Notes: generated by a model not told the origin, from the sequence alone. DNA of 64,000 nt from Candidatus Woesearchaeota archaeon (GCA_964549185.1 CAZJUI010000001.1:850-64849), one strand, 5' to 3'. Numbered from the stretch's first letter, positions 2,643-52,595 are shown. Program-made: numbers and translations.

Positions 2643-4061
2643 ATGAAAATTTTACTTATTAATCCACCTGCAATTCAAACAATAGAAGAATATGATGAGC
2701 CAGATAATCCAAGTATTTCTATAGCTTATCTAGCCGGTTATCTAAGATCTAAAAACATAGATGTTGATGTAATTGATGCAAAACTAGAAAGATTAAATTT
2801 CGAGCAAACAATTGAAAGATTTAAAAAAAATAAATATGATATTGTCGGCTTAACCTCTTACACTCATGATGTAAAAAATGCTCATAAGCTTGCATCTTTG
2901 ATAAAACAATTAGATAAAAAAGTTTTAACTTTAATTGGCGGAGTTCATGCAACAGCAATTCCAGTTGAGACATTAGAAAAGCTTCCTGATTTTGATGCAG
3001 CTGTAGTAGGAGAAGGCGAATACATGTTATATGATATCGCAAAAGCGTTAGAAGAAAATAAATCATTAAAAGGAATTGAGGGAGTTTATTATCGTGAAAA
3101 TGGACAAATAATTCCAAATCCAATAAGAATGAGAGAACAAAACTTAGATGCTCTTCCTCTCCCAGCATGGGATATGTTTCCAGCAGCTAAAAAATATCAA
3201 ATTATAGGCGCTCGTGGTTGTCCAAATTTCTGTTCATTCTGCATGTCTCCCTATGGGAGGAAAATTATGCGTTTTAGAAGTCCTGAAAATGTTATTCAAG
3301 AATTAGAATGGATAATTAATACTTATCATCCAATCGAAATTAGATTTAACGATGAAACATTCTCTCATGACATGGAAAGAACCCATAAATTACTTGATAT
3401 GATAATTGAAAGAAATTTACATAAAAAAACAACCTTTAGAGCATCAACAAGAGCAAATAAAGTTGACTATCCATTATTATTAAAAATAAAAAAAGCAAAT
3501 TTCTGTTATCTGGAAATTGGAGTAGAAACAGGAGATCCTGAAATAATAATAAAAACCCATAAAGGAATTACAATAGATCAAACAGAAAGAGCAGTTAAGC
3601 TAGCAAAAAAAGCTGGATTAAATGTCGGCTGTGGATTTATCATCGGTCATCCAGGCGAAACAAAAGAAACAGCTCAAAGAACAATGGATTTCATGGTAAA
3701 ACTTAATCCCACTCTAGCTGCTATCGGTTTAATGGTTCCTTATCCAGGAACAGAAGTAGCGGAATTGGCAAAAAGGGGAGAAGCAAATTATCGTTTATTG
3801 TCAACAGATTGGGAAGATTATAATAAACAAATAGGAAATGCATTGGAAATGCAAAACTTTACTAGAAAAGAAATGGAAATGATGCAAGCTCTTGGTTATC
3901 TAAAATTATATTATAAAAATTATAGATTTGGTGATTTAGTAAAATTTGTTTGGACATACAAGTCAGCTGGCTTCATGTTTGTCAAAAAACAATTAGGATT
4001 TGGTAGCAAAAAATCTTCAGGAACACAACTCGGTCCTATAAATGCTATATCTACAGCTTAA
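2643..4061 (+). CDS. B12-binding (class B) radical SAM protein, paralog 1.
   Basis: The N-terminal region is a Rossmann-like cobalamin-binding domain (MKILLINPP...). The radical SAM cysteine triad CxxxCxxC is present as GCPNFCSFC. Length is 472 aa, and the protein is paralogous to the ORFs at 16685, 41313 and 46824. Confidence 0.8.
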   Translation: MKILLINPPAIQTIEEYDEPDNPSISIAYLAGYLRSKNIDVDVIDAKLERLNFEQTIERFKKNKYDIVGLTSYTHDVKNAHKLASLIKQLDKKVLTLIGGVHATAIPVETLEKLPDFDAAVVGEGEYMLYDIAKALEENKSLKGIEGVYYRENGQIIPNPIRMREQNLDALPLPAWDMFPAAKKYQIIGARGCPNFCSFCMSPYGRKIMRFRSPENVIQELEWIINTYHPIEIRFNDETFSHDMERTHKLLDMIIERNLHKKTTFRASTRANKVDYPLLLKIKKANFCYLEIGVETGDPEIIIKTHKGITIDQTERAVKLAKKAGLNVGCGFIIGHPGETKETAQRTMDFMVKLNPTLAAIGLMVPYPGTEVAELAKRGEANYRLLSTDWEDYNKQIGNALEMQNFTRKEMEMMQALGYLKLYYKNYRFGDLVKFVWTYKSAGFMFVKKQLGFGSKKSSGTQLGPINAISTA

Positions 4062-30758: not shown

Positions 30759-31679
30759 TTATCCGATTGCAATCAATACTGTTCCAAAAATCATAATTAA
30801 AGCAGCTACAACATTCTTTATTATTCCTCTTTCTTTAAAGAAAATATATCCATAGATTATGCTAAAAACAATGCTTAATCTTTTTACAGATATCATATAA
30901 GCATTTAAAGTTAAACTTTGCGCTTTGAAAGAAGCCAAGCTCATCAAAGCGCTTAATGTTCCTATTATCAACAATATCCATATATTAGTTTTACTAGCTG
31001 TCCTTATTGGATTTTCTTTAAATCTTATCATTATATATAATGTAGATACAATACAGATTGAAATTATAGCCAATCCAGAAACAGCTAATGGGTTTTTTGT
31101 TTGATTTATTAAAATTTTATACAGTGGAGTTACAACAGCATATAAAAAAGCAGCTATAAGCATATACATTGATCCTTTATCTCTGAATAAGCTTCTAATT
31201 GGTTGGAATGAAATAAATCTTCCTTCTGTTTTTATTATATAAGATCCAAGAAATATCAAAAAAATCCCGATTGCTCCCAATAATGATGGTATTTCATTCA
31301 AAAAAATCCATGATATTATTGTTAAAAAAACAGGTGTAAAACTCAAAAAAGGAACTGTAATTGCTAATCCAGATATTTTAATTGCCTTTACATATAAAAT
31401 TATCGCTATCATCTCTAAAATTCCTGTAACAAAAAGCAAGAGAATTGATAATAAATCTAAATTCGGAATCTTTACAATAAATAATGTTATTATAATTATT
31501 GGTAAAGAAAAAAACCATACTGCCCATGAAACAATATAATCATTATATCTATTTAACGCTAGTTTCTGAACTAAATTATTCGTAGCTGTACTTAGTGCTG
31601 CAAATAAAGATAGTATTAGCCAAAGCATATTTATATTAAAAAAACACAGTTTAAAAAACTTGTTATTAATTAAAAACAT
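30759..31679 (-). CDS. DMT-superfamily (EamA-like) 10-TM transporter.
   Basis: 306 aa, arranged as two blocks of five hydrophobic helices. The annotated start overlaps the divergent neighbour, so the true start may be the internal Met near 31628. Confidence 0.45.
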   Translation of the reverse strand: MFLINNKFFKLCFFNINMLWLILSLFAALSTATNNLVQKLALNRYNDYIVSWAVWFFSLPIIIITLFIVKIPNLDLLSILLLFVTGILEMIAIILYVKAIKISGLAITVPFLSFTPVFLTIISWIFLNEIPSLLGAIGIFLIFLGSYIIKTEGRFISFQPIRSLFRDKGSMYMLIAAFLYAVVTPLYKILINQTKNPLAVSGLAIISICIVSTLYIMIRFKENPIRTASKTNIWILLIIGTLSALMSLASFKAQSLTLNAYMISVKRLSIVFSIIYGYIFFKERGIIKNVVAALIMIFGTVLIAIG

Positions 31680-31707
31680 TTATAACTTTTTCCACCATTC
31701 CATATTT

Positions 31708-33471
31708 ATGAAAGATGTAAAGATCGGTGACAAGATAATTGGCAAAGGCCATCCTGTCTTTGTTATAGCAGAAACAGCCTCTAGCCATGTAGGAAATAAA
31801 GAAAAACTTAAACAACTAATTAAAGCTGCAATAGATTCAGATGCAGACGCAATTAACCTACAAAAATTCTATGCAAATGAGCTTGCTGTTCCTCAAAATC
31901 CACAGCATAAAGACTTAGCAATTATTGAACTTAAAGATTCAGATTGGAAAGAAATCCTAGATTATACTAAAACATTAAACACAATTATTATAGGAAATCC
32001 ATTTGATGAATCAAGTGTTGATTTTTTTGATCCTTATGTAGATGCTTTCAAAATCCACTCTACTGATATTAATAATCCAGAAATGTTAACCAAAGTTGCA
32101 AAAAAGAATAAACCTATGTTTCTCGGTATTGGAGGAGCAAAACCTTTTGAAATAAAAAGAGCAATTAAAATTCTTCAATCAACTGGAAATGATCAAATCG
32201 TCTTAATGCATGGTTTTCAAGCCTTCCCAACAAGATTAGAAGATAGTAATCTAAAATTAATACCGACAGCAGAAAAAGAATATGATCTTCCAACTGGTTT
32301 TCTAGATCATATTGATGCAGAGACAAAGATGGCAATGGTTCTTCCATTATTATCTGTAGTTCAAGGAGCTGTTTTAATTGAAAAACATATCACTCTAGAC
32401 AGAAAATTAAAAGAATATGATTACTTTTCTGCTTTACATCCAAATGAATTCAAAGAAATGATGTTCTTAATTAGAGAAACAGAAAAAGCAATCGGTCATG
32501 GACAATTTATTCAATCAGAAGGTGAAGTTGGATATAATACCATGATGAAAAAGAATTTAGTTGCAAAAGTTCAAATAAAAAAAGATACAATTTTAACAAA
32601 AGATATGATAACTTTCAAAAGAGCTCGAGTTAATCCAGGACCTTCTCCAATTGATATAGAAAAATTTATAGGTAAATCAATAAATAAAGACTTAAATGAA
32701 AATGATCCAATTACAATGGAAGATTTAAATCTTAAATCAATTATTACATTGGCTGTTAGAATGAAATCATCTAGATTGCCAAGAAAAGCTCTAGCTGTAG
32801 TTGAAGATCAAACTGTTATCGAACATTTAATTGATAGAATGAAACTTTGTAAAGTCCCATCTGATTTAATTTTATGTACATCAACTCATCCAGATGACGC
32901 TGTTTTAATAGATATCGCAAAGAAAAAAGATATAAAATATTTTGCAGGTTCAGAAGATGATGTTATGGATCGTTTCATTAAAGCAGCATTGCCTGAAAAA
33001 GCAGATATAATTGTAAGAGTTACAGGAGATAATATTTTCACAGATCCTGAATGGCTTGATGAAACAATAAGATTCCATATAAAAAATAATCTAGATTATT
33101 CATTGCAGGATGGACTTCCAATTGGTTGTGTTTCAGAAGTTATCACTCTACATAATTTAATTAAAGCTCATGAAGCAGCTCTAGATCCTGAAAATACAGA
33201 ATATATGACATATTATTTAAGAAATGAAGATTATTTCAAGGGAAAACAATTAAAAGTTTCAGATGAATTTTATTTTCCAAATTACAGATTAACAATAGAT
33301 AATCCAGAAGATTTACAATTAATTCAAGCAATCTTTAAAGAACTTTACACTCCTGGAAAAGTAATTCCATTAAAGGATGTTCTAAATTTAATAAATAAAA
33401 AGCCTGAATTGCTAAATATAAATAAAAATGTTCAAGGAATACAATTTACAGTTAAGGGTTTGAAAAGTTAG
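31708..33471 (+). CDS. Fusion: NeuB-like nonulosonic acid synthase (N-terminal) plus SpsF/PseF-like cytidylyltransferase (C-terminal).
   Basis: The N-terminus KIGDKIIGKGHPVFVIAETASSHVGN...DADAINLQKF parallels the NeuB ORF at 37739. The C-terminal half has LAVRMKSSRLPRKAL (the SxRLPxK cytidylyltransferase motif, CTP_transf_3). I moved the start to ATG 31708; the track's TTG at 31660 would overlap the divergent gene. Confidence 0.65.
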   Translation: MKDVKIGDKIIGKGHPVFVIAETASSHVGNKEKLKQLIKAAIDSDADAINLQKFYANELAVPQNPQHKDLAIIELKDSDWKEILDYTKTLNTIIIGNPFDESSVDFFDPYVDAFKIHSTDINNPEMLTKVAKKNKPMFLGIGGAKPFEIKRAIKILQSTGNDQIVLMHGFQAFPTRLEDSNLKLIPTAEKEYDLPTGFLDHIDAETKMAMVLPLLSVVQGAVLIEKHITLDRKLKEYDYFSALHPNEFKEMMFLIRETEKAIGHGQFIQSEGEVGYNTMMKKNLVAKVQIKKDTILTKDMITFKRARVNPGPSPIDIEKFIGKSINKDLNENDPITMEDLNLKSIITLAVRMKSSRLPRKALAVVEDQTVIEHLIDRMKLCKVPSDLILCTSTHPDDAVLIDIAKKKDIKYFAGSEDDVMDRFIKAALPEKADIIVRVTGDNIFTDPEWLDETIRFHIKNNLDYSLQDGLPIGCVSEVITLHNLIKAHEAALDPENTEYMTYYLRNEDYFKGKQLKVSDEFYFPNYRLTIDNPEDLQLIQAIFKELYTPGKVIPLKDVLNLINKKPELLNINKNVQGIQFTVKGLKS

Positions 33472-33512
33472 TTTTATAAAGTTTTTGGTATTTTAAATAA
33501 TGGGGTATAAAA

Positions 33513-33857
33513 ATGGAACAATTAGACAAAAAAATAACTTTTGAAGATGAAGTAACAGTAAATGATCCACTTTATTCCAGTTTAGCTACAACTATTTCTG
33601 CAAGTGGATTTCAAGCAGGTTATGACCAACGGCCATGGAGGGCTCCAAAAAAAGATGATTTGGTAAGTTCCAAACACATCGATATTTTTTCCTATGAAAC
33701 AAGAAGAACTGGTATTTTTGGATTAAATAAAGAAGCAGAATGGATTGGGAGACTATATCTAAATGATCCTTATTATGGAGCAAGAGAAAATTGCAGATGG
33801 GTATTAGATGTTCACGGAAGAAAAAATATTCCGGTATTAACAGAGCTTGCAAAATAA
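33513..33857 (+). CDS. Hypothetical small protein. Its C-terminal domain is shared with the ORF at 34279.
   Basis: 114 aa. The C-terminal GRLYLNDPYYGARENCRWVLDVHGRKNIPVL aligns with GYLYFNDPNKWKMEVYGRNNINKL of the ORF at 34279. Confidence 0.35.
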   Translation: MEQLDKKITFEDEVTVNDPLYSSLATTISASGFQAGYDQRPWRAPKKDDLVSSKHIDIFSYETRRTGIFGLNKEAEWIGRLYLNDPYYGARENCRWVLDVHGRKNIPVLTELAK

Positions 33858-33974
33858 ATATCAAAACCACATAATGTAAATGTCCATCTAAGATTAATGA
33901 CTGAAAGAACAATATATGAAGGACAATATGAAGGAGATGACATCTGTTAATTTTGATTTATTATATAAATAAAA

Positions 33975-34277
33975 ATGATAGACCCAGAAGATGTAAAATT
34001 AGTAAAGGGAAGGGCAAGTGATTTTAGATTAACCAAAAATTTCACAAATGATTTAGATTTAGAATTTATCTGTATGGTATCATCTGCAGATAGTGGAGAT
34101 ATTCAAGCAGTTAAAGGCAATGTTGATGCAGGTATAAAAGAATTAGCTGCTCGGGCTGGAGCAAATTATATATTTGAATTAGAATATGTTTTTCATTTTG
34201 ATAATAATAATGCTGTAATGAATATCATATGCTATGGAGATGCTTACTTAATAAAGCCTAGAAGAGATAATCAATAA
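33975..34277 (+). CDS. YbjQ/UPF0145-family (DUF74) protein.
   Basis: AARAGANYIFELEYVFHF...MNIICYGDAYLIKP matches the conserved GA(N)A(V)...G(T)AV core of YbjQ-family proteins. 100 aa. Confidence 0.5.
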   Translation: MIDPEDVKLVKGRASDFRLTKNFTNDLDLEFICMVSSADSGDIQAVKGNVDAGIKELAARAGANYIFELEYVFHFDNNNAVMNIICYGDAYLIKPRRDNQ

Positions 34278-34278
34278 A

Positions 34279-34758
34279 ATGCCAATCGATGATGCGTTAA
34301 ATGATTTGCCAAAATCAAAAGAAGCGTCAAAACAGATAGTTGCACCTCCAGAGCCAGAGCAAGCAAATAAAGTAACCTTCATTGATACAATACAGCAATT
34401 TAGAAATAGTTTACAATATCATCTTCCTTACCAACTGGCAACAATTATAAAAAGTAAGGGGTTAGAAGTAACATGGGATAATGGTAATATAGTTTCTTCT
34501 TTAGATTCTCAGCATTTTCTAAAATTTATATCGATGGGAATTGCAGCCCAAAAAAGGTTTTGGTTTGGTCATGACTGGATAGGTTATTTATATTTTAATG
34601 ATCCTAATAAATGGAAAATGGAAGTTTATGGAAGAAATAATATAAATAAATTAAAAAATCTTGCTGACGAAATATCAAAACGGTATTCAAAAGATATAGA
34701 GCTTATATTAGAATTAGAATATCCAAGACCAAAGCCAGTAGGATTTTATAATTTATAA
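34279..34758 (+). CDS. Hypothetical protein sharing a C-terminal domain with the ORF at 33513.
   Basis: 159 aa. Its start is 2 nt after the stop of the YbjQ-like gene. See the shared motif above. Confidence 0.35.
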   Translation: MPIDDALNDLPKSKEASKQIVAPPEPEQANKVTFIDTIQQFRNSLQYHLPYQLATIIKSKGLEVTWDNGNIVSSLDSQHFLKFISMGIAAQKRFWFGHDWIGYLYFNDPNKWKMEVYGRNNINKLKNLADEISKRYSKDIELILELEYPRPKPVGFYNL

Positions 34759-34759
34759 T

Positions 34760-35902
34760 CTAAATCTTTAATTCTTCATAAATTAACCTAACAACCCTTT
34801 CAGTAGCTTTCCCATCATTACCTTCAACAAAGCTTTTCCTTCTTTCTTTTAATTCTTCTCTAAATTCTCCATTATATAATATTTTCATTAAATTAGGAAC
34901 TAACTCTCTTGTCTCATAAACGCCAAGAGAATAACCATTTTTATTAGTAATTAATGGATCTTCTGTTTTTAATCCAACTTGTAAACTTAAAACATCGGTA
35001 TCTAATAAACAAGCTTCCATTAATGAAGTTGACATCATCCCAACTACCAAATTAGAAGCTTTCATTGTCTCTCTCGTATTATAATTATTATTATACTCTC
35101 TTTTTGTTGCATCTTCCTTTCCACTAATAACAAAATTCATATCTTTTAACAATAATGTTCTTTCTGCAATATCTTCAAATGTCTCTCTGGGATGAAATTT
35201 AATCACAAAAGTTCCATGATATCCCATGTCATTCAATCCCTTAGACAATATTTTAAAAATTGTTTCTTCATTATAACCCCAATCAGTCGTTTTATTAGCT
35301 TTAAGATCTCCTTTAATTGGCTGTGAAATAAATGTTATCAAACTTCCTTCTGGGTGCACTCCAAAATATTCTCTTATCTCTTTTCTTTTATTAATTGTAA
35401 ATTTAGCATTTAATTCTCCTATATCATCAAAGTAAGGGTTTCCTGTAATCTTTAATCTTTCTCTAGGTAAACTTTCTTTAACCATTTTCTCCAAACTTTC
35501 TGCATCTAATGCTGTATGAATATCAGGCATGCATCCTAAGTTATCTCCAGTTTTATCATTTCTAACTCTTACAATATAATTTACAGGTAAATCTATAACA
35601 GATAAACTTCTAACTCCTATCCTTCTAGCAGCTAATATTCCTTCTTTTTCAACACACCATCCACCACTGCTTCCAGTAACTAAAAAGTTTGGTTTTTCTT
35701 CTTCCATAGCTATATCACCACTCAAGTAATCATCTAGTTTTCTATGGGGTAAGCCAGCTTGTGTAAATAAACTAACAGCAGGTCCGTTAGCTATTAATGT
35801 CAAATCCACTTTATCATCTTTTTGCAATCTTCTTGCAACAGGGATAACAGAATTCGCACTTCCAGTATATTGCGCTGCCACCATCACTTTAGGTTTTGTC
35901 AC
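34760..35902 (-). CDS. Putative GT-B-fold glycosyl/nonulosonate transferase with a KxHP motif.
   Basis: 380 aa Rossmann-like protein. The VIKFHPRE motif is paralogous to IIKLHPKD in the ORF at 35942. HP motifs are catalytic in bacterial GT-B sialyltransferases and KpsC/S-type transferases. This is an assignment by motif only. Confidence 0.3.
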   Translation of the reverse strand: MTKPKVMVAAQYTGSANSVIPVARRLQKDDKVDLTLIANGPAVSLFTQAGLPHRKLDDYLSGDIAMEEEKPNFLVTGSSGGWCVEKEGILAARRIGVRSLSVIDLPVNYIVRVRNDKTGDNLGCMPDIHTALDAESLEKMVKESLPRERLKITGNPYFDDIGELNAKFTINKRKEIREYFGVHPEGSLITFISQPIKGDLKANKTTDWGYNEETIFKILSKGLNDMGYHGTFVIKFHPRETFEDIAERTLLLKDMNFVISGKEDATKREYNNNYNTRETMKASNLVVGMMSTSLMEACLLDTDVLSLQVGLKTEDPLITNKNGYSLGVYETRELVPNLMKILYNGEFREELKERRKSFVEGNDGKATERVVRLIYEELKI

Positions 35903-37738: not shown

Positions 37739-38809
37739 CTATTTCTTCAATTCTCCCACATGTTCCCAATCTAATATATCATCCTCTTTCATATCCTTTA
37801 CTGCTTTTCTTCCTATAATCTCTCTAAAGAATCTCGGATTAATTCCTGTACCGGGTCTTTTTGATGTTATATTTTTAATGTCAAATATCTCCCCAGCCTT
37901 AATATCTCTATTAGCTACAATGCTTCTTCTTGCTAATCTTTGAGCCGGCTCTTCAACTTTAATTGGTCGTCTTGCTAATGAACTTCCTAATGCACTTTCG
38001 ATCTGTTTTATATTTGTGACCATCTCTTTCAATTCTTTAGGATCTACAGATAACCAATGATCCGCACTTCCCTTCAATGCTTTATCTATGGTATAATGTT
38101 TCTCTATCATCTTTGCTCCTAAACTAACAGCTCCGATTGGCACCAAAGTTCCTAAACTATGATCACTTAATCCAATTAAATAATCCGGAAATATTTTCTT
38201 TAAAGTTGGAATCATATTCAAATTCATATCTTCAGTTGGTGTCGGATAAGACAAAATGCAATGCAACAATATTATTTGATTATTTCCCTCTTCTTCAATC
38301 ACCCTTGCAGCTTCTTCTATCTCCCCAATTGTAGCTGCTCCTGTTGATAATGCCATTGGTAATCCTTTTTTTGCTATATGTCTTAAAAGATTTAAATGAG
38401 TTATATCCGCACTTGCAATTTTATACATTGGCACCCCAATCTTTTCCAAAAAATCGGCACTTTCCTCGTCAAAGGGTGTTGAAAAAAATATTATTCCTAA
38501 TTCTTCAGCATATTTCTGCATTTTAATAAAATCTTCTTCGCTAAGATAATCGAAGTTCTTGTATTCATCATACTGTGTTTCATCACTTTCTGTCCAATAT
38601 TTGGGAGAATTTTTTATTGCTATTTTTTCAGCTTTATATGTTTGGAATTTTATGGCATCAGCTCCATTTTCTTTTGCCTTTTTTATTAATTCATAACCTC
38701 TTTCTAACATACAATCATGATTTACTCCAGCTTCAGCTACAACAAAACATGGCTCATCATCCCCTACATATCTATTTCCTATCTTTATTCTTGTCACCAT
38801 TTCAACCAC
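37739..38809 (-). CDS. neuB: N-acetylneuraminate/nonulosonic acid synthase (NeuB/PseI/LegI family) with a C-terminal SAF domain.
   Basis: CFVVAEAGVNHDCMLE...ADAIKFQTYKAEK, STPFDEESADFL, ILLHCILSYPTPTEDMNLN and a C-terminal KAGEIFD...ITSKRPGTG SAF domain. The match to E. coli NeuB blocks is strong. Confidence 0.85.
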   Translation of the reverse strand: MVEMVTRIKIGNRYVGDDEPCFVVAEAGVNHDCMLERGYELIKKAKENGADAIKFQTYKAEKIAIKNSPKYWTESDETQYDEYKNFDYLSEEDFIKMQKYAEELGIIFFSTPFDEESADFLEKIGVPMYKIASADITHLNLLRHIAKKGLPMALSTGAATIGEIEEAARVIEEEGNNQIILLHCILSYPTPTEDMNLNMIPTLKKIFPDYLIGLSDHSLGTLVPIGAVSLGAKMIEKHYTIDKALKGSADHWLSVDPKELKEMVTNIKQIESALGSSLARRPIKVEEPAQRLARRSIVANRDIKAGEIFDIKNITSKRPGTGINPRFFREIIGRKAVKDMKEDDILDWEHVGELKK

Positions 38810-40193
38810 CCTTATAGTTTCTTATTATCTGTTCAGCAAGCCACAAATCATATTCATTATATATCCTTACAGCTTCGTTCGGCATCATCTCTACATAAGC
38901 TACACTATTCCCAATAATTCCATTATTGTTTAAATTTTCTAAAGTTGTAATATAAAATGCTCCATTTTCTTCTAGGATAGTATCTTTTTCATCTCTCAAT
39001 AATCTTTTATTAAATAATGGCTCGATTCCATATCTTCCTGGTTTCCAATGAAAATTAAGGTTTGCACAAACAGAGACTATGCTATCTGTTTTAAATATTA
39101 ACTGGGTAAAAATTCCTTCTTTTATATGCTCACTTGTTTTAAAGGGGCTTATCAAATGTAAAACAGCAATTAAATCAGGAACATAATCATCATTCTTCTT
39201 CAAATAATCAACAACATGTCTTACAACATCATCAACATGAACTGTTTTTTTTGCTAAATCAACAGGTCTTTTGATAACATAAGCTCCTATTTTTTCAGCA
39301 GCACTTGCAATGTCATAATCTTCAGTAGAAACAACAATTTTATTAAACAATTCAGTTTTTTTCGCTTCATCTATCGTATAAGATAATAAAGGTTTTCCAT
39401 TTAAATTAGCGATTGGAATTTTAATCCCATTAATCATGTCGCCCCTAGCAGGAATAACAGCTAATATTTTCAAATTTTTTAACTTTCCATCATAATGTCT
39501 TTTAACAAATTCTTCCTTTACAATTCTTTTAGAGTGTAAAATCCCTTTCATATTCTTAGTCATATTTGCGCCATGTCTTCTATAATAAAACAAAGGCAGA
39601 TTAATATTTCTAACTTTAAATTTAGTAATAAACTTCATCCAAAAATCATAGTCTTCTCCAATCTTTAAATTTTCATTATATCCCCCAATTTCATCATAGC
39701 ATGTTCTCTTGTACATCGCTCCAGCAGCTAAAGGACTTCTTTGCAGTAAATCAACTTCTTCATTAACTTTCATCAATCTATTATGCTCCAATATCTTTCC
39801 ATCTTCATCTATGGTATAATAATCTGAATAAACCAAATCAACATCTTTATTTTCATACAAAAATCTTTCTTCTACCAATAGCAAATTATCATCAAAATAA
39901 TCATCAGCATCTAATCTTATTATAAAATCCCCCTGAGACATACTAATTCCTTTATTACAAGCTGCACTTAATCCAACATTATCTACCCTTATTACTTTCA
40001 AATTATTTGGAAATTTTGATTTATAACTCTGAATAACATCTTGAGTCTCATCTGTACTTCCATCATCTACTATAATAATCTCAAAATCCTTATATGTCTG
40101 TCTAAATAAACTTTCCAGGCATTTACCTAAAAACCTTCCGTAATTGTGAGCTGTCACTATCACACTTACTCTCGGTTTCTTAATAGTCTCCAT
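38802..40193 (-). CDS. Fusion: GT2 glycosyltransferase (N-terminal) plus NeuA-like CMP-nonulosonate synthetase (C-terminal).
   Basis: The N-terminus is VSVIVTAHNYGRFLGKCLESLFRQTYKDFEIIIVDDGSTDET (GT2). The C-terminus ILAVIPARGDMINGIKIPIANLNGKPLLSYTIDEA...VVSTEDYDIASAAEKIGAYVIKRP...LHLISPFK parallels NeuA blocks (IPARGGS, LxGKPLIAYTI, VSTDD, QPTSPLR). Confidence 0.7.
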   Translation of the reverse strand: METIKKPRVSVIVTAHNYGRFLGKCLESLFRQTYKDFEIIIVDDGSTDETQDVIQSYKSKFPNNLKVIRVDNVGLSAACNKGISMSQGDFIIRLDADDYFDDNLLLVEERFLYENKDVDLVYSDYYTIDEDGKILEHNRLMKVNEEVDLLQRSPLAAGAMYKRTCYDEIGGYNENLKIGEDYDFWMKFITKFKVRNINLPLFYYRRHGANMTKNMKGILHSKRIVKEEFVKRHYDGKLKNLKILAVIPARGDMINGIKIPIANLNGKPLLSYTIDEAKKTELFNKIVVSTEDYDIASAAEKIGAYVIKRPVDLAKKTVHVDDVVRHVVDYLKKNDDYVPDLIAVLHLISPFKTSEHIKEGIFTQLIFKTDSIVSVCANLNFHWKPGRYGIEPLFNKRLLRDEKDTILEENGAFYITTLENLNNNGIIGNSVAYVEMMPNEAVRIYNEYDLWLAEQIIRNYKGG

Positions 40194-40228: not shown

Positions 40229-41305
40229 CTATATATTAACCTTTATCTCAGAAGGTTTAGCATATCTATAACCCTCATGCAGATTGCAAGTTCTGCAAGC
40301 AGGCATAACATCTAACTTGCTTTGTTTATGCAACTCTCTTAATTGATTTAGTATTGCTCCATTCCATATCTCTTTTAATGTTTGTTTAGTAACATCACCC
40401 ACAACATTTTTTCTAAACCAATCTCCACAGCACATCATAACCTTTCCATCCCACGCTACCATCAATCTTTGGAATGGCTGTGGACAAGTTTTTCTTCCTA
40501 AGGTAATTTGATCATATTCAATTGATCTATCATTTTCTTCTCCTTCCCCCCTATTGCTGTAATCATTAGTTGCAACATGATCTACTATTCCTTCCCACAT
40601 TTTGATAAATTGGTCAACTTCATGAACATTATCTTTCATCCTAACCATCTGTATTCTGATAAATGGTTTTTTCTTTCCCATTTCATTTCTTATTCTTACA
40701 AAATCTTTAATATTTTTCATTAAAATGTCATATTTTGCTCTCACTCTTATTTTTTCATAAGTTTCCTTAGTTGCTCCATCCATAGAAAATATTATTCCAT
40801 CTAATCCAGCTTCTATCAATCCTCTTATTTTATTTTCATTTAATAAAGTTCCATTAGAATTTGTTTGTAATTCCTTTATGCCTTTATCTTTTGCATATTT
40901 CACCATTTCAATAAATTTAGGATGTATTAATGGTTCTCCTCTCCAATTAAGTTTCATAGAATATAATCCTTCTTTTGCACATTCATCTACAATTTTATGA
41001 AATAAATCCATTGTAATAAATCCGTCTTGAATTCCGCTTCTATCAAAACTCTGTGGGCACATTACACATCTTAAATTGCATGCATCACTCGGTTCTATAT
41101 CAACATGTGTTGGGAATTTAGGTATTAATCCAAATCTTGCAACTCTCGGGCTCCAATTCCATTTAGCCCTATACCATAAGTACTTAGGATCTTTCTTATT
41201 CATAAACTTCTTTAATTTAGCTTTAAATCCACCTTGTATGTGATGTCCACTTCCACCATAGAAGTGTTGTTTCTCGTTTGTTTCATTACTTTGTTCAGTT
41301 GACAT
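40229..41305 (-). CDS. Radical SAM protein with a C-terminal SPASM/twitch Cys-rich domain.
   Basis: The CxxxCxxC triad is SDACNLRCVMC. The C-terminus CPQPFQRLMVAWDGKVMMCCGDW...PACRTCNL provides auxiliary Fe-S cysteines. Confidence 0.7.
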   Translation of the reverse strand: MSTEQSNETNEKQHFYGGSGHHIQGGFKAKLKKFMNKKDPKYLWYRAKWNWSPRVARFGLIPKFPTHVDIEPSDACNLRCVMCPQSFDRSGIQDGFITMDLFHKIVDECAKEGLYSMKLNWRGEPLIHPKFIEMVKYAKDKGIKELQTNSNGTLLNENKIRGLIEAGLDGIIFSMDGATKETYEKIRVRAKYDILMKNIKDFVRIRNEMGKKKPFIRIQMVRMKDNVHEVDQFIKMWEGIVDHVATNDYSNRGEGEENDRSIEYDQITLGRKTCPQPFQRLMVAWDGKVMMCCGDWFRKNVVGDVTKQTLKEIWNGAILNQLRELHKQSKLDVMPACRTCNLHEGYRYAKPSEIKVNI

Positions 41306-41312
41306 ATTAATC

Positions 41313-42767
41313 TTAAACAGTAGCTTCCCCGCTTTTTCCGGTTATCAAATTTAAAGCGCCTAAAGCTCCTCTCGCATAATATTTTACTTGTTCAAATGAT
41401 TTAATTCCAATAAACATCTTCCATAAATAACTTGGTCTCATATAAAATTCTTTGTAAGCTTTCTTTCTTAACTCTTGTAATTGGTCTGTTGTTAATTCCC
41501 TAGATCTTATTAATGGATCTTCAGCTATCTGCACCCAATTATCCCAATTTGGATCTGAAATTAAGTTTTCTTTTACAGTAATATCATACAATCCGGTTCC
41601 AACAATCGGGATTGCCAAGAAAAAATAAGCTAACTGAGGATTAATCTCTTTAGCTAATTTTATTGTTTCTTCAAATGTTTCTGTTGTCTCTCCAGGATAT
41701 CCTAAAATAAAAGATGCTGATGCTGGAATTCCAACTTCATGTATTAACTTAAAAGCTGCTTTTATTTGTGCAGGGGTTTGATCTTTTTCCATTGCATCCA
41801 ATATTTTTTGACTTCCTGACTCTACTCCAAATCTAACAAAATAACATCCTGATTTTTTCATCTTTTCTAAGCTTTCTCTGTCACAATGATTAACTCTAGT
41901 CAAACAGTTCCAATGCAGATCATAATCTCTTTTTATTAATCCATCTAAAATTGGATTCATTCTGCTTTTATTAATAACAAAAATTTCATCATTAAATTCC
42001 AAGCAATGAATATTAAATTTATCAACCAAATAGTCTATTTCTTCCAATGTTCTCTCAACACTCCAATATCTTACTTTTCTCGTCCACATAACCTTAGAAG
42101 CACAAAAATTACATCTGTAAGGACATCCTCTTAAAGAAAAAAATATTGTGAATGGTTGTAATTTAACACCTTTAACCTGGAATGAACTATGGTGCGCAGG
42201 TGGTCTATATAATTCCATAGGCAATAAATCATAAGCTGGCATTGGCAAAATATCTAAATTTTCAATTAATGGTCTTGGAGCAGTCATTCTTATCTGTCCA
42301 TTGTCTCTGTAAATCATTCCATTAACTTTAGATAAATCTTTTTTTCCTCTTTTTTCTAATTTATCTAATAGCTCAACTGTTGTTATCTCCCCCTCACTTA
42401 TAACTCCATAATCAACAATTGGAAATTCTTTCATTGTCTCAAAAGGCAGTGCAGTCATATGATCTCCACCTAAGAAAGTCTTAACATTAGGACTAACATT
42501 TCTAGCTATCTGTAGAACATCACATGCTTTTTTTACTGTAGGTGTAACAGCCCCAACTCCAACTACATCAACATCTTTTGGAATATGTTTATGCAATTCA
42601 CTCATCGGAATTTGTAAAGCAACAGCATCTAGAATACTCACTTTATGCCCATTCTCTCTCATATAAGCAGCAAGATAAGCTAATCCCATTGGTTGATTAA
42701 TTCCTGCAACTGTTGGAACTTTCTTATATACTTCCTGGTAGCTTGGGTTGATGAGTTGGACTTTCAT
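41313..42767 (-). CDS. B12-binding radical SAM protein, paralog 3.
   Basis: N-terminal B12-binding domain (MKVQLINPS...). The CxxxCxxC triad is GCPYRCNFC. 484 aa. Confidence 0.8.
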   Translation of the reverse strand: MKVQLINPSYQEVYKKVPTVAGINQPMGLAYLAAYMRENGHKVSILDAVALQIPMSELHKHIPKDVDVVGVGAVTPTVKKACDVLQIARNVSPNVKTFLGGDHMTALPFETMKEFPIVDYGVISEGEITTVELLDKLEKRGKKDLSKVNGMIYRDNGQIRMTAPRPLIENLDILPMPAYDLLPMELYRPPAHHSSFQVKGVKLQPFTIFFSLRGCPYRCNFCASKVMWTRKVRYWSVERTLEEIDYLVDKFNIHCLEFNDEIFVINKSRMNPILDGLIKRDYDLHWNCLTRVNHCDRESLEKMKKSGCYFVRFGVESGSQKILDAMEKDQTPAQIKAAFKLIHEVGIPASASFILGYPGETTETFEETIKLAKEINPQLAYFFLAIPIVGTGLYDITVKENLISDPNWDNWVQIAEDPLIRSRELTTDQLQELRKKAYKEFYMRPSYLWKMFIGIKSFEQVKYYARGALGALNLITGKSGEATV

Positions 42768-46823: not shown

Positions 46824-48350
46824 GTGATTCTTATGGAAAAAAAAGTAAAATCAAAAGAAAAGAAAAAGATCATTTTAATCTATCCTAATCTAGGTATTTA
46901 TGGAAAGATCATTCAAGATTTACCTTTAGCTTTACTGCAAACAGCAAGAATTGTCTATGATAAAGGTTATGATATATTAATTCTCGATCAAAGACTAGAT
47001 GATAACTGGAGAGATACATTAAAAAAAGAAATTAACAAAGACACTTTATTTGTAGCTCTATCTGCAATGATAGGTGAACCAATAAACTATGCTCTAGAAA
47101 TTGCAAAGTTCATGAAAGATAACTATCCTGAAATGCCTGTTCTTTGGGGCGGTATTCATCCAACATTATTGCCTTTACAAACTTTAGAACATCCATTAGT
47201 TGATATTGTAATTAAAGGAGATGGAGAAGAAACAATCTATGATGTTGCTCAAGCATTAGAAAAAGGTAAATCATTAAAGGGAATTCCAGGTGTTTTCTAT
47301 AAAGAAAAAGACGGAACTATAGTTTCAAATCCAGTAAGAGCTCCATCTAATCTAGATGCTTTACCTCCAATTCCATATAATTTAGTAAACATTGAAGCTT
47401 ATGAAAGACAAGGATTCAAAGAAAAAACATTCACAATATTTACCTCCGCTTCCTGCCCTCATAGATGTGCATTTTGCCATGTTCCAGGTGAAAAAAGTAC
47501 ATGGCGTCCTGAAAGTGTAGACAAAACAATGGCTCATTTAAGATATATTTATAATACTTACCATCCTCAATATATCTACTTTGGAGATAATGATTTCTTT
47601 GTAAGAATGGACAGGGCAAAGGAAATTTTTAGAAGAATAAAAGAAGAAAAATTTGAAGGAGTTACTTTCGGTTTCAGGGGAACAAGAATAGATGAACTAG
47701 ACAGAATGGATGATGCAATGTTATCTTTAATGGAAGAAATTAATCTAACATATTTACATATTGGAGCTGAATCAGGATCACAAAGAATTTTAGATTTCAT
47801 CTGGAAAGACATAAAATTAGAGCAAACAATAAGAGTAAATGAAAAACTTGCTAAACATCCAAAACTTCATCCATCTTACAATTTTTTCTGTGGAGTTCCT
47901 ACAGAAACTAAAGCTGATTTAAAAGCAACAACTGATCTAATTTTAAGATTATTGCAAGATAATCCAAATGCTCAGATTAGCAGCGCAACTCAATTCACTC
48001 CTTATCCTGGAACAAGATTATTTGACATAGCTATTCAATATGGATTTAAGCCTCCAACTTCGCTAGAAGGATGGGCAAAGTTTGATCCAAGTGATTTCGC
48101 AAAAAGACTTCCATGGTTAAGTAAAGAAAGACAAAGATTATTAGACTTAATTTACATAACAGCATGGTTTGTAGATAAAAAAGTGAATTGGAACTTTACA
48201 TCAGATGAAATATTCTGGAAAGTGTTTCGTACATTGTCATCAGCTTATCGCCCAATAGCAAAATTTAGATTGAAACATCATTTTACAGGTCTTCCATTTG
48301 AATATCCTGCTAGAAAAATATTCTTTAATATATTAGAAAATAGAAACTAA
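46824..48350 (+). CDS. B12-binding radical SAM protein, paralog 4.
   Basis: N-terminal B12-binding domain. The CxxxCxxC triad is SCPHRCAFC. 508 aa. The start may be ATG 46833 rather than GTG 46824. Confidence 0.8.
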   Translation: MILMEKKVKSKEKKKIILIYPNLGIYGKIIQDLPLALLQTARIVYDKGYDILILDQRLDDNWRDTLKKEINKDTLFVALSAMIGEPINYALEIAKFMKDNYPEMPVLWGGIHPTLLPLQTLEHPLVDIVIKGDGEETIYDVAQALEKGKSLKGIPGVFYKEKDGTIVSNPVRAPSNLDALPPIPYNLVNIEAYERQGFKEKTFTIFTSASCPHRCAFCHVPGEKSTWRPESVDKTMAHLRYIYNTYHPQYIYFGDNDFFVRMDRAKEIFRRIKEEKFEGVTFGFRGTRIDELDRMDDAMLSLMEEINLTYLHIGAESGSQRILDFIWKDIKLEQTIRVNEKLAKHPKLHPSYNFFCGVPTETKADLKATTDLILRLLQDNPNAQISSATQFTPYPGTRLFDIAIQYGFKPPTSLEGWAKFDPSDFAKRLPWLSKERQRLLDLIYITAWFVDKKVNWNFTSDEIFWKVFRTLSSAYRPIAKFRLKHHFTGLPFEYPARKIFFNILENRN

Positions 48351-50921: not shown

Positions 50922-52595
50922 CTATCTTTTCTTTTTCTCTAATAAAAAGTTCCCAACAGCCAAATAATCTAATCCCGTACTATAAAATGTTTTTATAGCT
51001 TCTTTCGGTCCAAGAACAATAGGATCTCCAGCATCGTTAAATGATGTGTTTAATACAGCTGGTATTCCAGTTTCATCTTCAAAAGCTTCTATCATTTTAT
51101 AATATTTCGGATTAATTCTTTTAACAACAGTCTGTATTCTTGCTGTTCCATCTATATGAATGGCAGCAGCTAATTCTTTCTGCTTTTTCTTTTTAGTATC
51201 AAAAGTTAACAACATAAATGGACTATTATAATAATTTTCAAAATATTCATCGCAAGCTCGATCTAAAACACTTGGTGCAAATGGTCTCCAATTTTCTCTA
51301 TGTTTCACTTCTTTATTCACTTTATCCTTCATCGAAGCAACACTTGGATTTGCTAATATGCTTCTATTTCCCAAAGCTCTTGGTCCGAGCTCTAATTTTC
51401 CTTGGCACCATCCAACAATAAATCCTTTAGCTAGTTTTTCAGCAACCGCTCCTTCAATATCTTTTTGATAACTATAAACTGCTTTAGATTCTTTTAACAC
51501 TTTTTCAATCTCTTCATCGCTAAATTCCGGCCCATAATAAGCATGCTCCATAACAAAATTTGTTTTGTATCCAAGTTGACTATAAAGCTCATAAGCAGCT
51601 CCTAATGCAGTTCCTGCATCATGTGACGCTGGTTGAATAAATATATCTTTAGTAAAAGGCATCCCAAGTATTTTAGCATTCATGTCACAATTTAATGCAA
51701 CACCCCCAGCCAAACAAAAATTAGGAATACCTGTTCTATCGTACATAACTTCTGCCAATCTTTTTCCAATTTGCTCTAATTTAAATTGTACAGAAGCAGC
51801 CAAATTTTTATGATGTTGTGTAATCTCTTCTTCAGGTTTTCTTGGTCTTCCAACTATATTTGCTACAGTACTAAACCAATTTTTATCAAATCTATATCCT
51901 CCTCTTGTTATTTTTACAACATCATCTAAATCAAATACAGGTTTTCCATATGTAGCCAATCCCATAATTTTTCCTTCGTCTTTATGACTCCCAAAACCAA
52001 GTAAATGTGTAAATGAAGAATATAAATTTCCTAAAGAATTATGCACATCATACGTTTCAATTTGATTTATCCTTCCATTTTCTCCAACGCCCAAAAATGT
52101 GGATTCGTTCTCCCCTCTTCCATCTAATGTTATTATATTTGCTTTACTCATTCCAGAAACGAAAAATGTGCTAGCTGCATGTGCTCTATGGTGAGGAATA
52201 AATTTAATTTCTTTTTTCTTGCCTTTCATCATATCATTTAATTTTCTCATCTCTTTAAGATAAGTGAAATAAGCATCAATGCCTGCAAAAGGATCAGAAA
52301 CGTAATTATTTTCTTTAATAAACGGTTTAAATCTAAATTTTAATAAATAGCTTGCATAACTTACATATAAAAACTTGTTTGGTGTTCCAAAACCAACCGC
52401 AATATAATCTATATCATCAAATGTGATATTAGCCTCTTTTAAACAAAATTTTATAGCATTTTTAGGAAACATTCTTGGAGAATATTTAATTCCATTAAAT
52501 CTTTCTTCTTCAGCAGTTGCAATCAATCTTCCATCTTTTACTATAGCTGCTGCATTGTTCCACGATATTGGCCCAGTTATTCCTAAAATGTACAT
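50922..52595 (-). CDS. Carbamoyltransferase (NodU/CmcH family).
   Basis: The N-terminus MYILGITGPISWNNAAAIVKDGRLIATAEEERFNGIKYSP is the classical YrdC/Kae1-like carbamoyltransferase start. 557 aa. Confidence 0.85.
   Translation of the reverse strand: MYILGITGPISWNNAAAIVKDGRLIATAEEERFNGIKYSPRMFPKNAIKFCLKEANITFDDIDYIAVGFGTPNKFLYVSYASYLLKFRFKPFIKENNYVSDPFAGIDAYFTYLKEMRKLNDMMKGKKKEIKFIPHHRAHAASTFFVSGMSKANIITLDGRGENESTFLGVGENGRINQIETYDVHNSLGNLYSSFTHLLGFGSHKDEGKIMGLATYGKPVFDLDDVVKITRGGYRFDKNWFSTVANIVGRPRKPEEEITQHHKNLAASVQFKLEQIGKRLAEVMYDRTGIPNFCLAGGVALNCDMNAKILGMPFTKDIFIQPASHDAGTALGAAYELYSQLGYKTNFVMEHAYYGPEFSDEEIEKVLKESKAVYSYQKDIEGAVAEKLAKGFIVGWCQGKLELGPRALGNRSILANPSVASMKDKVNKEVKHRENWRPFAPSVLDRACDEYFENYYNSPFMLLTFDTKKKKQKELAAAIHIDGTARIQTVVKRINPKYYKMIEAFEDETGIPAVLNTSFNDAGDPIVLGPKEAIKTFYSTGLDYLAVGNFLLEKKKR

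Follow-up and report, generated by a model that had tools for sequence, protein, structure and literature searches.

A probable strain-variable small-gene slot in the surface-glycosylation island of a DPANN archaeon

The 64,000-nucleotide (nt) stretch of DNA from Candidatus Woesearchaeota archaeon analyzed here (GCA_964549185.1 CAZJUI010000001.1:850-64849; the whole stretch is referred to as the window) contains three small plus-strand genes, designated P1, P2, and P3, directly downstream of a gene encoding a NeuB fusion protein. Comparison with related loci makes it probable that this site is a strain-variable small-gene slot, located at the 5' end of a short plus-strand unit within the surface-glycosylation island of this DPANN archaeon, whose G+C content is low. 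P3 is the stable component of the unit, a fast-evolving family member that is under selection, and, as judged from homologous loci, the trio is not a conserved, coevolving three-gene module. A preliminary description of the window had placed the three open reading frames (ORFs) of 114, 100, and 159 amino acids (aa), the latter two 1 nt apart, and these assignments proved exact.

Replacement of the P1-P2 segment in close relatives

Ten loci from close relatives (L001 to L010), a locus from a more distant relative (L017), and a set of protein homologues (P0002 to P0033) were used for comparison. Several projects contributed the 24 contigs that encode P0002. These loci are 90 to 93% identical to the window in DNA, and their synteny with it extends from the glycosyltransferases over the NeuB fusion, the genes for the 380-aa and 594-aa proteins, and a second NeuB gene to the radical-SAM genes. 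In blastn alignments, positions 33502 to 34264, which carry P1 and P2, had no counterpart in L001 to L010. In L002 to L010, this 763-bp segment is replaced by 318 bp with an 87-aa ORF that has no similarity to P2, and in L001 it is replaced by ~930 bp holding a 186-aa ORF and an 86-aa ORF. The 186-aa ORF (L001:9093-9653; KWRLEVYGKNRI) encodes a third paralogue of the protein family to which P1 and P3 belong (E = 4e-6 to P3). All 10 loci have P3 and lack both P1 and P2, so conservation in close relatives holds for P3 but not for the other two genes.

Blastn and junction alignments placed the left break point at ~33501 (33485 for L001), just past a TATA-like element, and junction alignments placed the right break point 14 to 16 nt 5' of the P3 ATG. 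The difference is therefore a sharp, nonhomologous replacement between flanks that are 90 to 93% identical, as in a strain-variable cassette. A GGGG(G)T element stands ~8 nt before the first ATG in each of the three cassette variants. Outside the window, the trio was found only in two fragments, L011 and L031, which are 100% identical and come from two other runs with neighboring run accessions; co-occurrence of the three genes as a cassette elsewhere was not seen. Of the earlier proposal that an uncharacterized module had been inserted at this position, the part that survives is that the P1-P2 segment is variable relative to close relatives; no recurring cassette was found, and P1 contains a nonsense codon.

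The ratio of nonsynonymous to synonymous substitution rates (dN/dS) was 0.31 for P3, compared to 0.03 to 0.14 for its neighbors and 0.06 for the fusion gene (measured against L002), which indicates that P3 is under selection, but looser than that on its neighbors. An N-terminal extension of ~30 aa in P3 is unstructured in a low-confidence model.

In the mechanism proposed here, a variable segment would be exchanged by recombination between conserved flanks, of which the left one stops at a promoter-like region and the right one starts those 14 to 16 nt before the P3 ATG. The slot would form the 5' part of a transcription unit whose last gene is P3, and P1 would have been either inactivated recently or truncated at its C terminus. 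The features of the region are as follows.

31660/31708-33471, plus strand: fusion gene encoding NeuB, SAF, and CMP-sugar cytidylyltransferase (CTP_transf_3) domains, directly upstream of P1
33472-33501, plus strand: 5' region common to all cassette variants (from the junction alignment), holding the TATA-like element TTTTATAAAG at 33472-33481
33502-34264, plus strand: strain-variable segment of 763 bp containing P1 and P2 (from blastn against L001 to L010, junction alignments, and ORF lists)
33513-33857, plus strand: P1, 114 aa, a W-x-L-E/D-V-Y-G-R family member ended early by an in-frame TAA at 33855-33857
33858-33950, plus strand: in-frame continuation of P1, ISKPHNVNVHLRLMTERTIYEGQYEGDDIC and a stop, encoding the end of the family's C-terminal helix and its last strand
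33975-34277, plus strand: P2, 100 aa, isoelectric point of 4.7, a lineage-specific orphan gene
34279-34758, plus strand: P3, 159 aa, which belongs to the family of P1 as a divergent member and is kept in the closest relatives
34760-35902, minus strand: gene for a 380-aa GT-B-like protein, convergent neighbor of P3, with no Pfam match above the cutoff

An unannotated DPANN protein family

P1 and P3 aligned by BLASTP with 30% identity over nearly all of P1 (E = 1e-8), and 0 of 2,000 shuffles reached their Smith-Waterman score (z = 12.4). By the same kind of shuffle-test alignment, P2 was unrelated to both. The two proteins share a motif, IGRLYLNDP...RWVLDVHGRKNIP in P1 and IGYLYFNDP.NKWKMEVYGRNNIN in P3, which had been noticed beforehand as a C-terminal element of roughly 30 aa. 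This motif is genuine, and the pairwise tests bear out its significance, but the similarity spans essentially the whole of P1 and is not restricted to the C terminus.

A word-indexed search of 5.8 billion proteins returned P3 itself, P0002 (85% identity, recorded there on 17 contigs), P1, and a fragment of the third paralogue. To find the wider family, HMMER was run exhaustively with a four-sequence profile against 1.84 billion cluster representatives, which gave 31 matches at E < 1e-3, with 28 further proteins that had E values between 2e-7 and 8e-4. The lengths of these family members are all within 114 to 206 aa, and most align over nearly the whole profile. An alignment of 32 members (A3) and a profile of 10 distant members only, without P1 and P3 (A4), were used to define the family. 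Against A4, P3 scored 52.0 bits and P1 scored 48.7 to 48.9 bits; because this profile was built from distant members only, the assignment of P1 and P3 to the family is not circular.

The N-terminal part of A3 consists of a conserved stretch ending in G-Y followed by IGIL, FLG, and IGxL stretches, and the C-terminal part contains the signature W-x-L-E/D-V-Y-G-R-E/D/N, then L..LA..LS..Y, then V.I.V.L..E. Both P1 and P3 have the core motif W-x-[LMIV]-[ED]-[VI]-[YH]-G-[RK] following an I-G-x-L strand. In A3, the G of this motif does not vary, and its W and its Y are each conserved to at least 90%, with H in place of Y in P1. The C-terminal helix and final strand (L..LA..LS..Y.V.I.V.L..E) are complete in P3 and are present in P1 only if the TAA is read through. 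In the low-confidence P3 model, the last hairpin, helix, and strand agree with the last part of this layout.

Many distant members (P0006 to P0033) end in an acidic/aromatic tail, E-x-[YF]-L-S-D-[FY]-x-Y, with examples such as ETYLSDFDY, ESYPSDFSL, EHYLSDNSY, and EAFNSDYNY, from which the C-terminal tails of P1 and P3 diverge. This tail may be a short docking motif.

None of P1, P2, and P3 matched anything in Pfam (newest models from 2025), NCBIfam (2026), PHROGs, or PADLOC, and the 32 aligned family members produced only scattered chance matches in Pfam and NCBIfam, in one member each. Neither the 4-sequence nor the 32-sequence family profile had a significant match among PDB sequences, in agreement with the earlier statement that the shared domain belongs to no recognized family. 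Alba1 and the RpoN C-terminal domain were rejected as relatives, with E values of 0.2 to 0.3 and matches to one helix only. No family member was present in IMG/VR viral contigs, and tblastn searches of GenBank phage records and PLSDB plasmids found none.

A search for loci with A4, limited by its strict pattern to 4 hits in genomes and 7 in metagenomes, placed all 4 of the genome loci in DPANN archaea (Aenigmatarchaeota, Woesearchaeota, and Nanobdellati). Source names among the family members were limited to Nanoarchaeia and Aenigmarchaeota, the product was always "hypothetical protein," and the closest relative of P3 is annotated from a Candidatus Nanoarchaeia metagenome-assembled genome. The three proteins of the trio are hydrophilic, and no known catalytic family was matched by members of the family. 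By all indications, P1 and P3 are members of an unannotated family of soluble proteins of ~130 to 150 aa that has so far been found only in DPANN archaea. Absent from Pfam, NCBIfam, PHROGs, PADLOC, and PDB, it deserves definition as a new family.

The in-frame stop codon of P1

The reading frame of P1 comprises 145 codons ending at position 33950 and is interrupted by the TAA. In A3, P1 breaks off in the middle of the C-terminal helix, and translation through the TAA reads LTELAK, the stop, ISKPHNVNVHLRLMTERTIYEGQYEGDDIC, and a second stop. Masking the TAA raised the score of P1 against A4 from 48.9 to 71.3 bits (+22), with a gap-free alignment to the C terminus of the family. The A4 consensus at the position of the stop is K, and a change from AAA to TAA would require one transversion. 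Downstream of the stop, codon usage is coding-like (log-odds of 0.275), which together with the 22-bit gain argues that any inactivation of P1 was recent. The independently assembled contig L031 (run SRR12113430) is 100% identical to the window over positions 33492 to 34547, including the TAA, making an assembly error unlikely. Most likely, P1 is a family member of full length (145 codons) that has recently acquired a nonsense mutation, and it would now be either a young pseudogene or a gene for a truncated protein.

P2, an apparent orphan gene

P2 had been described as having a YbjQ (UPF0145/DUF74) fold, and every sequence-level test of membership in that family failed. A hmmscan search of Pfam-A at E ≤ 1 returned only JAG1 (E = 0.22) and not the YbjQ profile (PF01906), a phmmer search of PDB at E ≤ 10 returned only BacD and ACP at E > 0.2, and BLASTP produced no alignment to a manually entered sequence of Escherichia coli YbjQ. 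A single-sequence AlphaFold2 model of P2, with a predicted local distance difference test (pLDDT) score of 61.5, has a beta-alpha-beta-beta core at residues 27 to 93, and the best Foldseek match of this low-confidence model in PDB had an E value of 0.19. The YbjQ likeness may be at most a distant resemblance of fold.

Among the 5.8 billion proteins, the search with P2 found P2 itself only. A candidate viral homologue, a 308-aa protein on a viral contig (L030), was rejected, as it shared an 8-residue word with P2 by chance. Codon usage in P2 resembles that of genes: in-frame log-odds values were 0.33 for P1, 0.47 for P2, and 0.32 for P3, compared to 0.36 ± 0.12 for the long genes of the window, and values in the other five frames of all three genes were negative. 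P2 is best described as an orphan gene, coding by appearance, that seems to have come with P1. A short GC-rich inverted repeat within P2 (34147 to 34164; TGCTCGGGCTGGAGCA) has a terminator-like score on both strands and is probably a chance product of the codons that encode AARAGA.

Three branches of the family beside the same sugar genes

The nearest non-self matches of the P1 read-through sequence were distant members, for example, P0011 (59.9 bits), with P3 falling outside the top 8, and the nearest relatives of P3 beyond P0002 were likewise other distant members. Because P1 is nearer to distant members than to P3, the pair did not arise by a recent tandem duplication. P1 is instead an anciently diverged member, closer to members from other DPANN phyla than to its neighbor P3. 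The L001 186-aa ORF and P0022 are close to each other (130 bits) and make up an insert-bearing third branch of 186 to 187 aa, which in L001 comes directly behind the NeuB fusion gene.

P0022 (L017:4557-5120) comes from the more distant relative, in which the fusion protein is 81% identical to that of the window and an unrelated 92-aa ORF lies directly behind the fusion gene. The family member of L017 is located on the opposite side of a 388-aa GT-B-like gene, the counterpart of the 380-aa gene, so that a family member adjoins the 380/388-aa gene in both the window lineage and L017. P0022 lies between the 388-aa gene and the 594-aa-like gene, overlapping the 3' end of the latter by ~90 bp. The 380-aa protein is 52% identical to the 388-aa protein, compared to 76 to 81% identity for the flanking genes, and is a fast-evolving candidate nonulosonate transferase. 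From these relationships, three old branches of the family appear to have been brought together in the same small region of closely related lineages.

The contexts of 13 distant members contained no recurring neighbor. Adjacent genes encoded ribosomal proteins S8e and L11, NAD-dependent DNA ligase, a nucleoside deoxyribosyltransferase-like protein, two different methyltransferases, VanZ, HIT, peptidase A24, peptidase U32, a class I tRNA synthetase, and several unknown proteins. The paralogous domain had been viewed as part of a module of the island, but the family occurs also in other DPANN archaea, where distant members stand in unrelated, mostly housekeeping contexts. At two loci of distant DPANN lineages (L014:4696-8378 and L020:99-1227), a family member lies directly upstream of an orotidine 5'-monophosphate (OMP)-decarboxylase-family gene, and in L014 it is located between a phosphoribosyltransferase-domain gene and the genes for OMP decarboxylase and dihydroorotate dehydrogenase, with overlapping stop and start codons. 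A pyrimidine-operon link for the family was rejected, as the OMP-decarboxylase neighbor was not present in the other 11 contexts.

Surroundings of the slot

The G+C content of the window is ~29%, and the many sugar genes identified by Pfam and NCBIfam scans include those for an archaeal-type oligosaccharyltransferase (AglB/STT3) and an AglJ-like glycosyltransferase. The domains of the fusion gene were recognized by Pfam with E values of 1.4e-48 (NeuB), 9.9e-17 (CTP_transf_3), and 1.5e-7 (SAF). Its true start is probably the ATG at 31708 (587 aa) and not the mechanically called TTG at 31660; the 587-aa fusion orthologues in L001 to L008 begin with MKDVKIG, and the TTG call would overlap the EamA gene. 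The TATA-like element stands directly 3' of the fusion-gene stop codon, and the region from 33472 to 33501 is a putative promoter. The trio had been thought to interrupt a run of minus-strand genes, but the fusion gene upstream is also on the plus strand, and there is no strand-switched insertion. Instead, the trio prolongs a plus-strand block that converges on minus-strand genes from 34760 on. The first of these, encoding the 380-aa protein, had weak Pfam matches only, to Epimerase_2, Glyphos_transf, and polysialyltransferase.

An Rfam scan of the whole window found no RNA family. Scans for bacterial-type promoters (13 sites, compared to 10.2 ± 3.7 in shuffles) and bacterial-type terminators (2 sites, compared to 0.7 ± 1.0 in shuffles) gave no clear excess over shuffled sequence and are ill-suited to archaea.

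A second indel lies nearby, at positions 31629 to 31707, where ~79 bp separate the EamA gene from the NeuB fusion and L002 (5061 to 7840) has 2.8 kb instead. The additional DNA of the relatives encodes a HAD hydrolase, an APH-type kinase, and DHDPS-family proteins, and this difference could alter the sugar that is made. On the minus strand, the intervals 37739 to 40193 and 40229 to 42767 contain a second, stand-alone NeuB gene, a fusion of GT2 and CTP_transf_3, a radical SAM/SPASM gene, and a B12-binding radical SAM gene. Further B12-radical-SAM genes are found at 2643 to 4061 and 46824 to 48350, and a NodU-like carbamoyltransferase gene is found at 50922 to 52595. This sugar-modification repertoire is unusually rich for a DPANN genome.

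Alternative explanations

A self-contained three-gene module inserted in the island, such as a binding protein with an immunity protein, a toxin-antitoxin-like unit, or a defense unit, would fit the tight packing of the trio (with P2 and P3 1 nt apart), the strain variability of the segment, and the small size and fast evolution of the proteins, and arrays of small, diverse paralogues do recall orphan immunity-gene arrays. This explanation is nonetheless very improbable, being largely refuted by the lack of co-occurrence: the trio is present only in 100% identical fragments, and relatives keep P3 without P1 or P2. PADLOC returned 0 families at E ≤ 1 for P1, P2, and P3, none of the 32 family members matched Imm or SUKH in Pfam (E ≤ 0.1), homologues were absent from viral contigs, phage records, and plasmids, the flanking genes are all sugar-pathway genes with none toxin-like, and P1 has its premature stop. 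An immunity or regulatory role had been suggested for the trio, and no finding supports either. The in-frame TAA of P1, the lack of any homologue of P2 in 5.8 billion proteins, and the absence of both genes from the closest relatives would be expected if P1 were a pseudogene in decay and if P2 were an ORF that arose in AT-rich DNA by chance or de novo, leaving P3 as the only gene that matters. That view is rather unlikely given that the log-odds value of P2 is at the high end for genes of the window, with negative values in its five other frames, that P2 abuts P3, and that the post-stop region of P1 is coding-like and worth 22 bits. In addition, because stop codons are AT-rich, an open frame of 100 codons is improbable by chance at 29% G+C.

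The family proteins of the island might also serve nonulosonic-acid glycosylation as accessory, specificity, or regulatory subunits, with the 380-aa protein as one candidate partner and with their position maintained by selection. Three deep branches all occur within ~2 kb of the fusion gene and beside the 380/388-aa gene, in three arrangements (the window has P1 plus P3, L001 has the 186-aa ORF, and L017 has P0022), and P3 and the 380-aa gene both evolve faster than the flanks. These island examples come from one narrow clade, however, and are not independent; 0 of 13 distant members have a nonulosonate-pathway gene as an immediate neighbor, and P1 carries a nonsense codon. We therefore regard such a role as unlikely. 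A related but speculative and doubtful idea is that the family consists of small cytoplasmic binding or adaptor proteins that are not enzymes, and that this clade recruited divergent copies beside the 380-aa GT-B-like gene. In its more specific form, which is quite improbable, the family would be a DPANN-wide adaptor that docks to a conserved partner via the acidic/aromatic tail that many distant members share, and the machinery of nonulosonic-acid glycosylation in this Nanoarchaeia clade, for example, the 380-aa protein, would have gained specificity or regulatory subunits through repeated recruitment of divergent copies.

Several points weigh against the preferred explanation, a strain-variable slot with P3 as its stable component. 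Recombination is deduced from the break points, with repeats and an integrase having been sought no further than the junction alignments. P1 could retain a function in its truncated form, or low-level read-through could occur. The case for P2 as a real gene, which lacks any homologue, depends on codon usage, the gap of 1 nt to P3, and ORF length. The presence of three family branches beside the same sugar genes is not obviously due to chance and may signal a functional link to the nonulosonate genes. Finally, the pLDDT values of the structure models (50 and 61) are too low to argue for or against any fold assignment.

Relation to known systems and significance

Hypothetical proteins predominate in DPANN archaea, and clustering readily overlooks proteins that are small and evolve fast (PMC9258230). 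Families of such hypothetical proteins abound in DPANN archaea according to two protein-family surveys (PMC9258230 and PMC8204110). The P1/P3 family resembles the families described there in being small, DPANN-only so far, and without functional annotation; it apparently differs in that three deep branches share one variable slot. A literature search for DPANN archaea in combination with nonulosonic acid returned no papers.

Strain-variable cassettes between conserved flanks are familiar from flexible glycosylation islands of prokaryotes. The slot described here is like them in the exchange of 763 bp for 318 or ~930 bp between flanks of 90 to 93% identity, in its sugar-gene surroundings, and in the second indel of 2.8 kb nearby. 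In contrast to such islands, the replaced unit contains small genes of unknown function and no sugar gene, and the swap takes place inside an apparent single transcription unit, ahead of the conserved P3. Orphan immunity-gene arrays (SUKH/Imm) likewise consist of small cytoplasmic alpha/beta proteins with adjacent diverse paralogues, strain-variable content, and raised dN/dS, but the 32 members of the present family lack any Imm or SUKH match, no toxin gene is nearby, no PADLOC match was found, and distant members are single genes among housekeeping genes. A strongly conserved W-x-L-E-V-Y-G-R motif also seems unusual for immunity proteins.

The general phenomena of DPANN hypothetical families and variable glycosylation islands are already familiar, and nothing here points to a new kind of system. 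A long-standing open question would be touched only if a functional tie between the family and nonulosonate glycosylation were established. The analysis corrects the annotation of the locus, in which a nonsense codon interrupts P1, P2 is not YbjQ by sequence, and the trio is no module. It also provides an unannotated, DPANN-only family with an alignment, a motif, and a member set that could be deposited as a new family, and a deep alignment should permit structure prediction. For the biology of this episymbiotic archaeal lineage, the locus represents a cleanly delimited case of small-gene turnover within a glycosylation island, in cells whose surface is presumably under selection. If the adaptor explanation were true, the swapping of family copies would itself be part of cell-surface variation.

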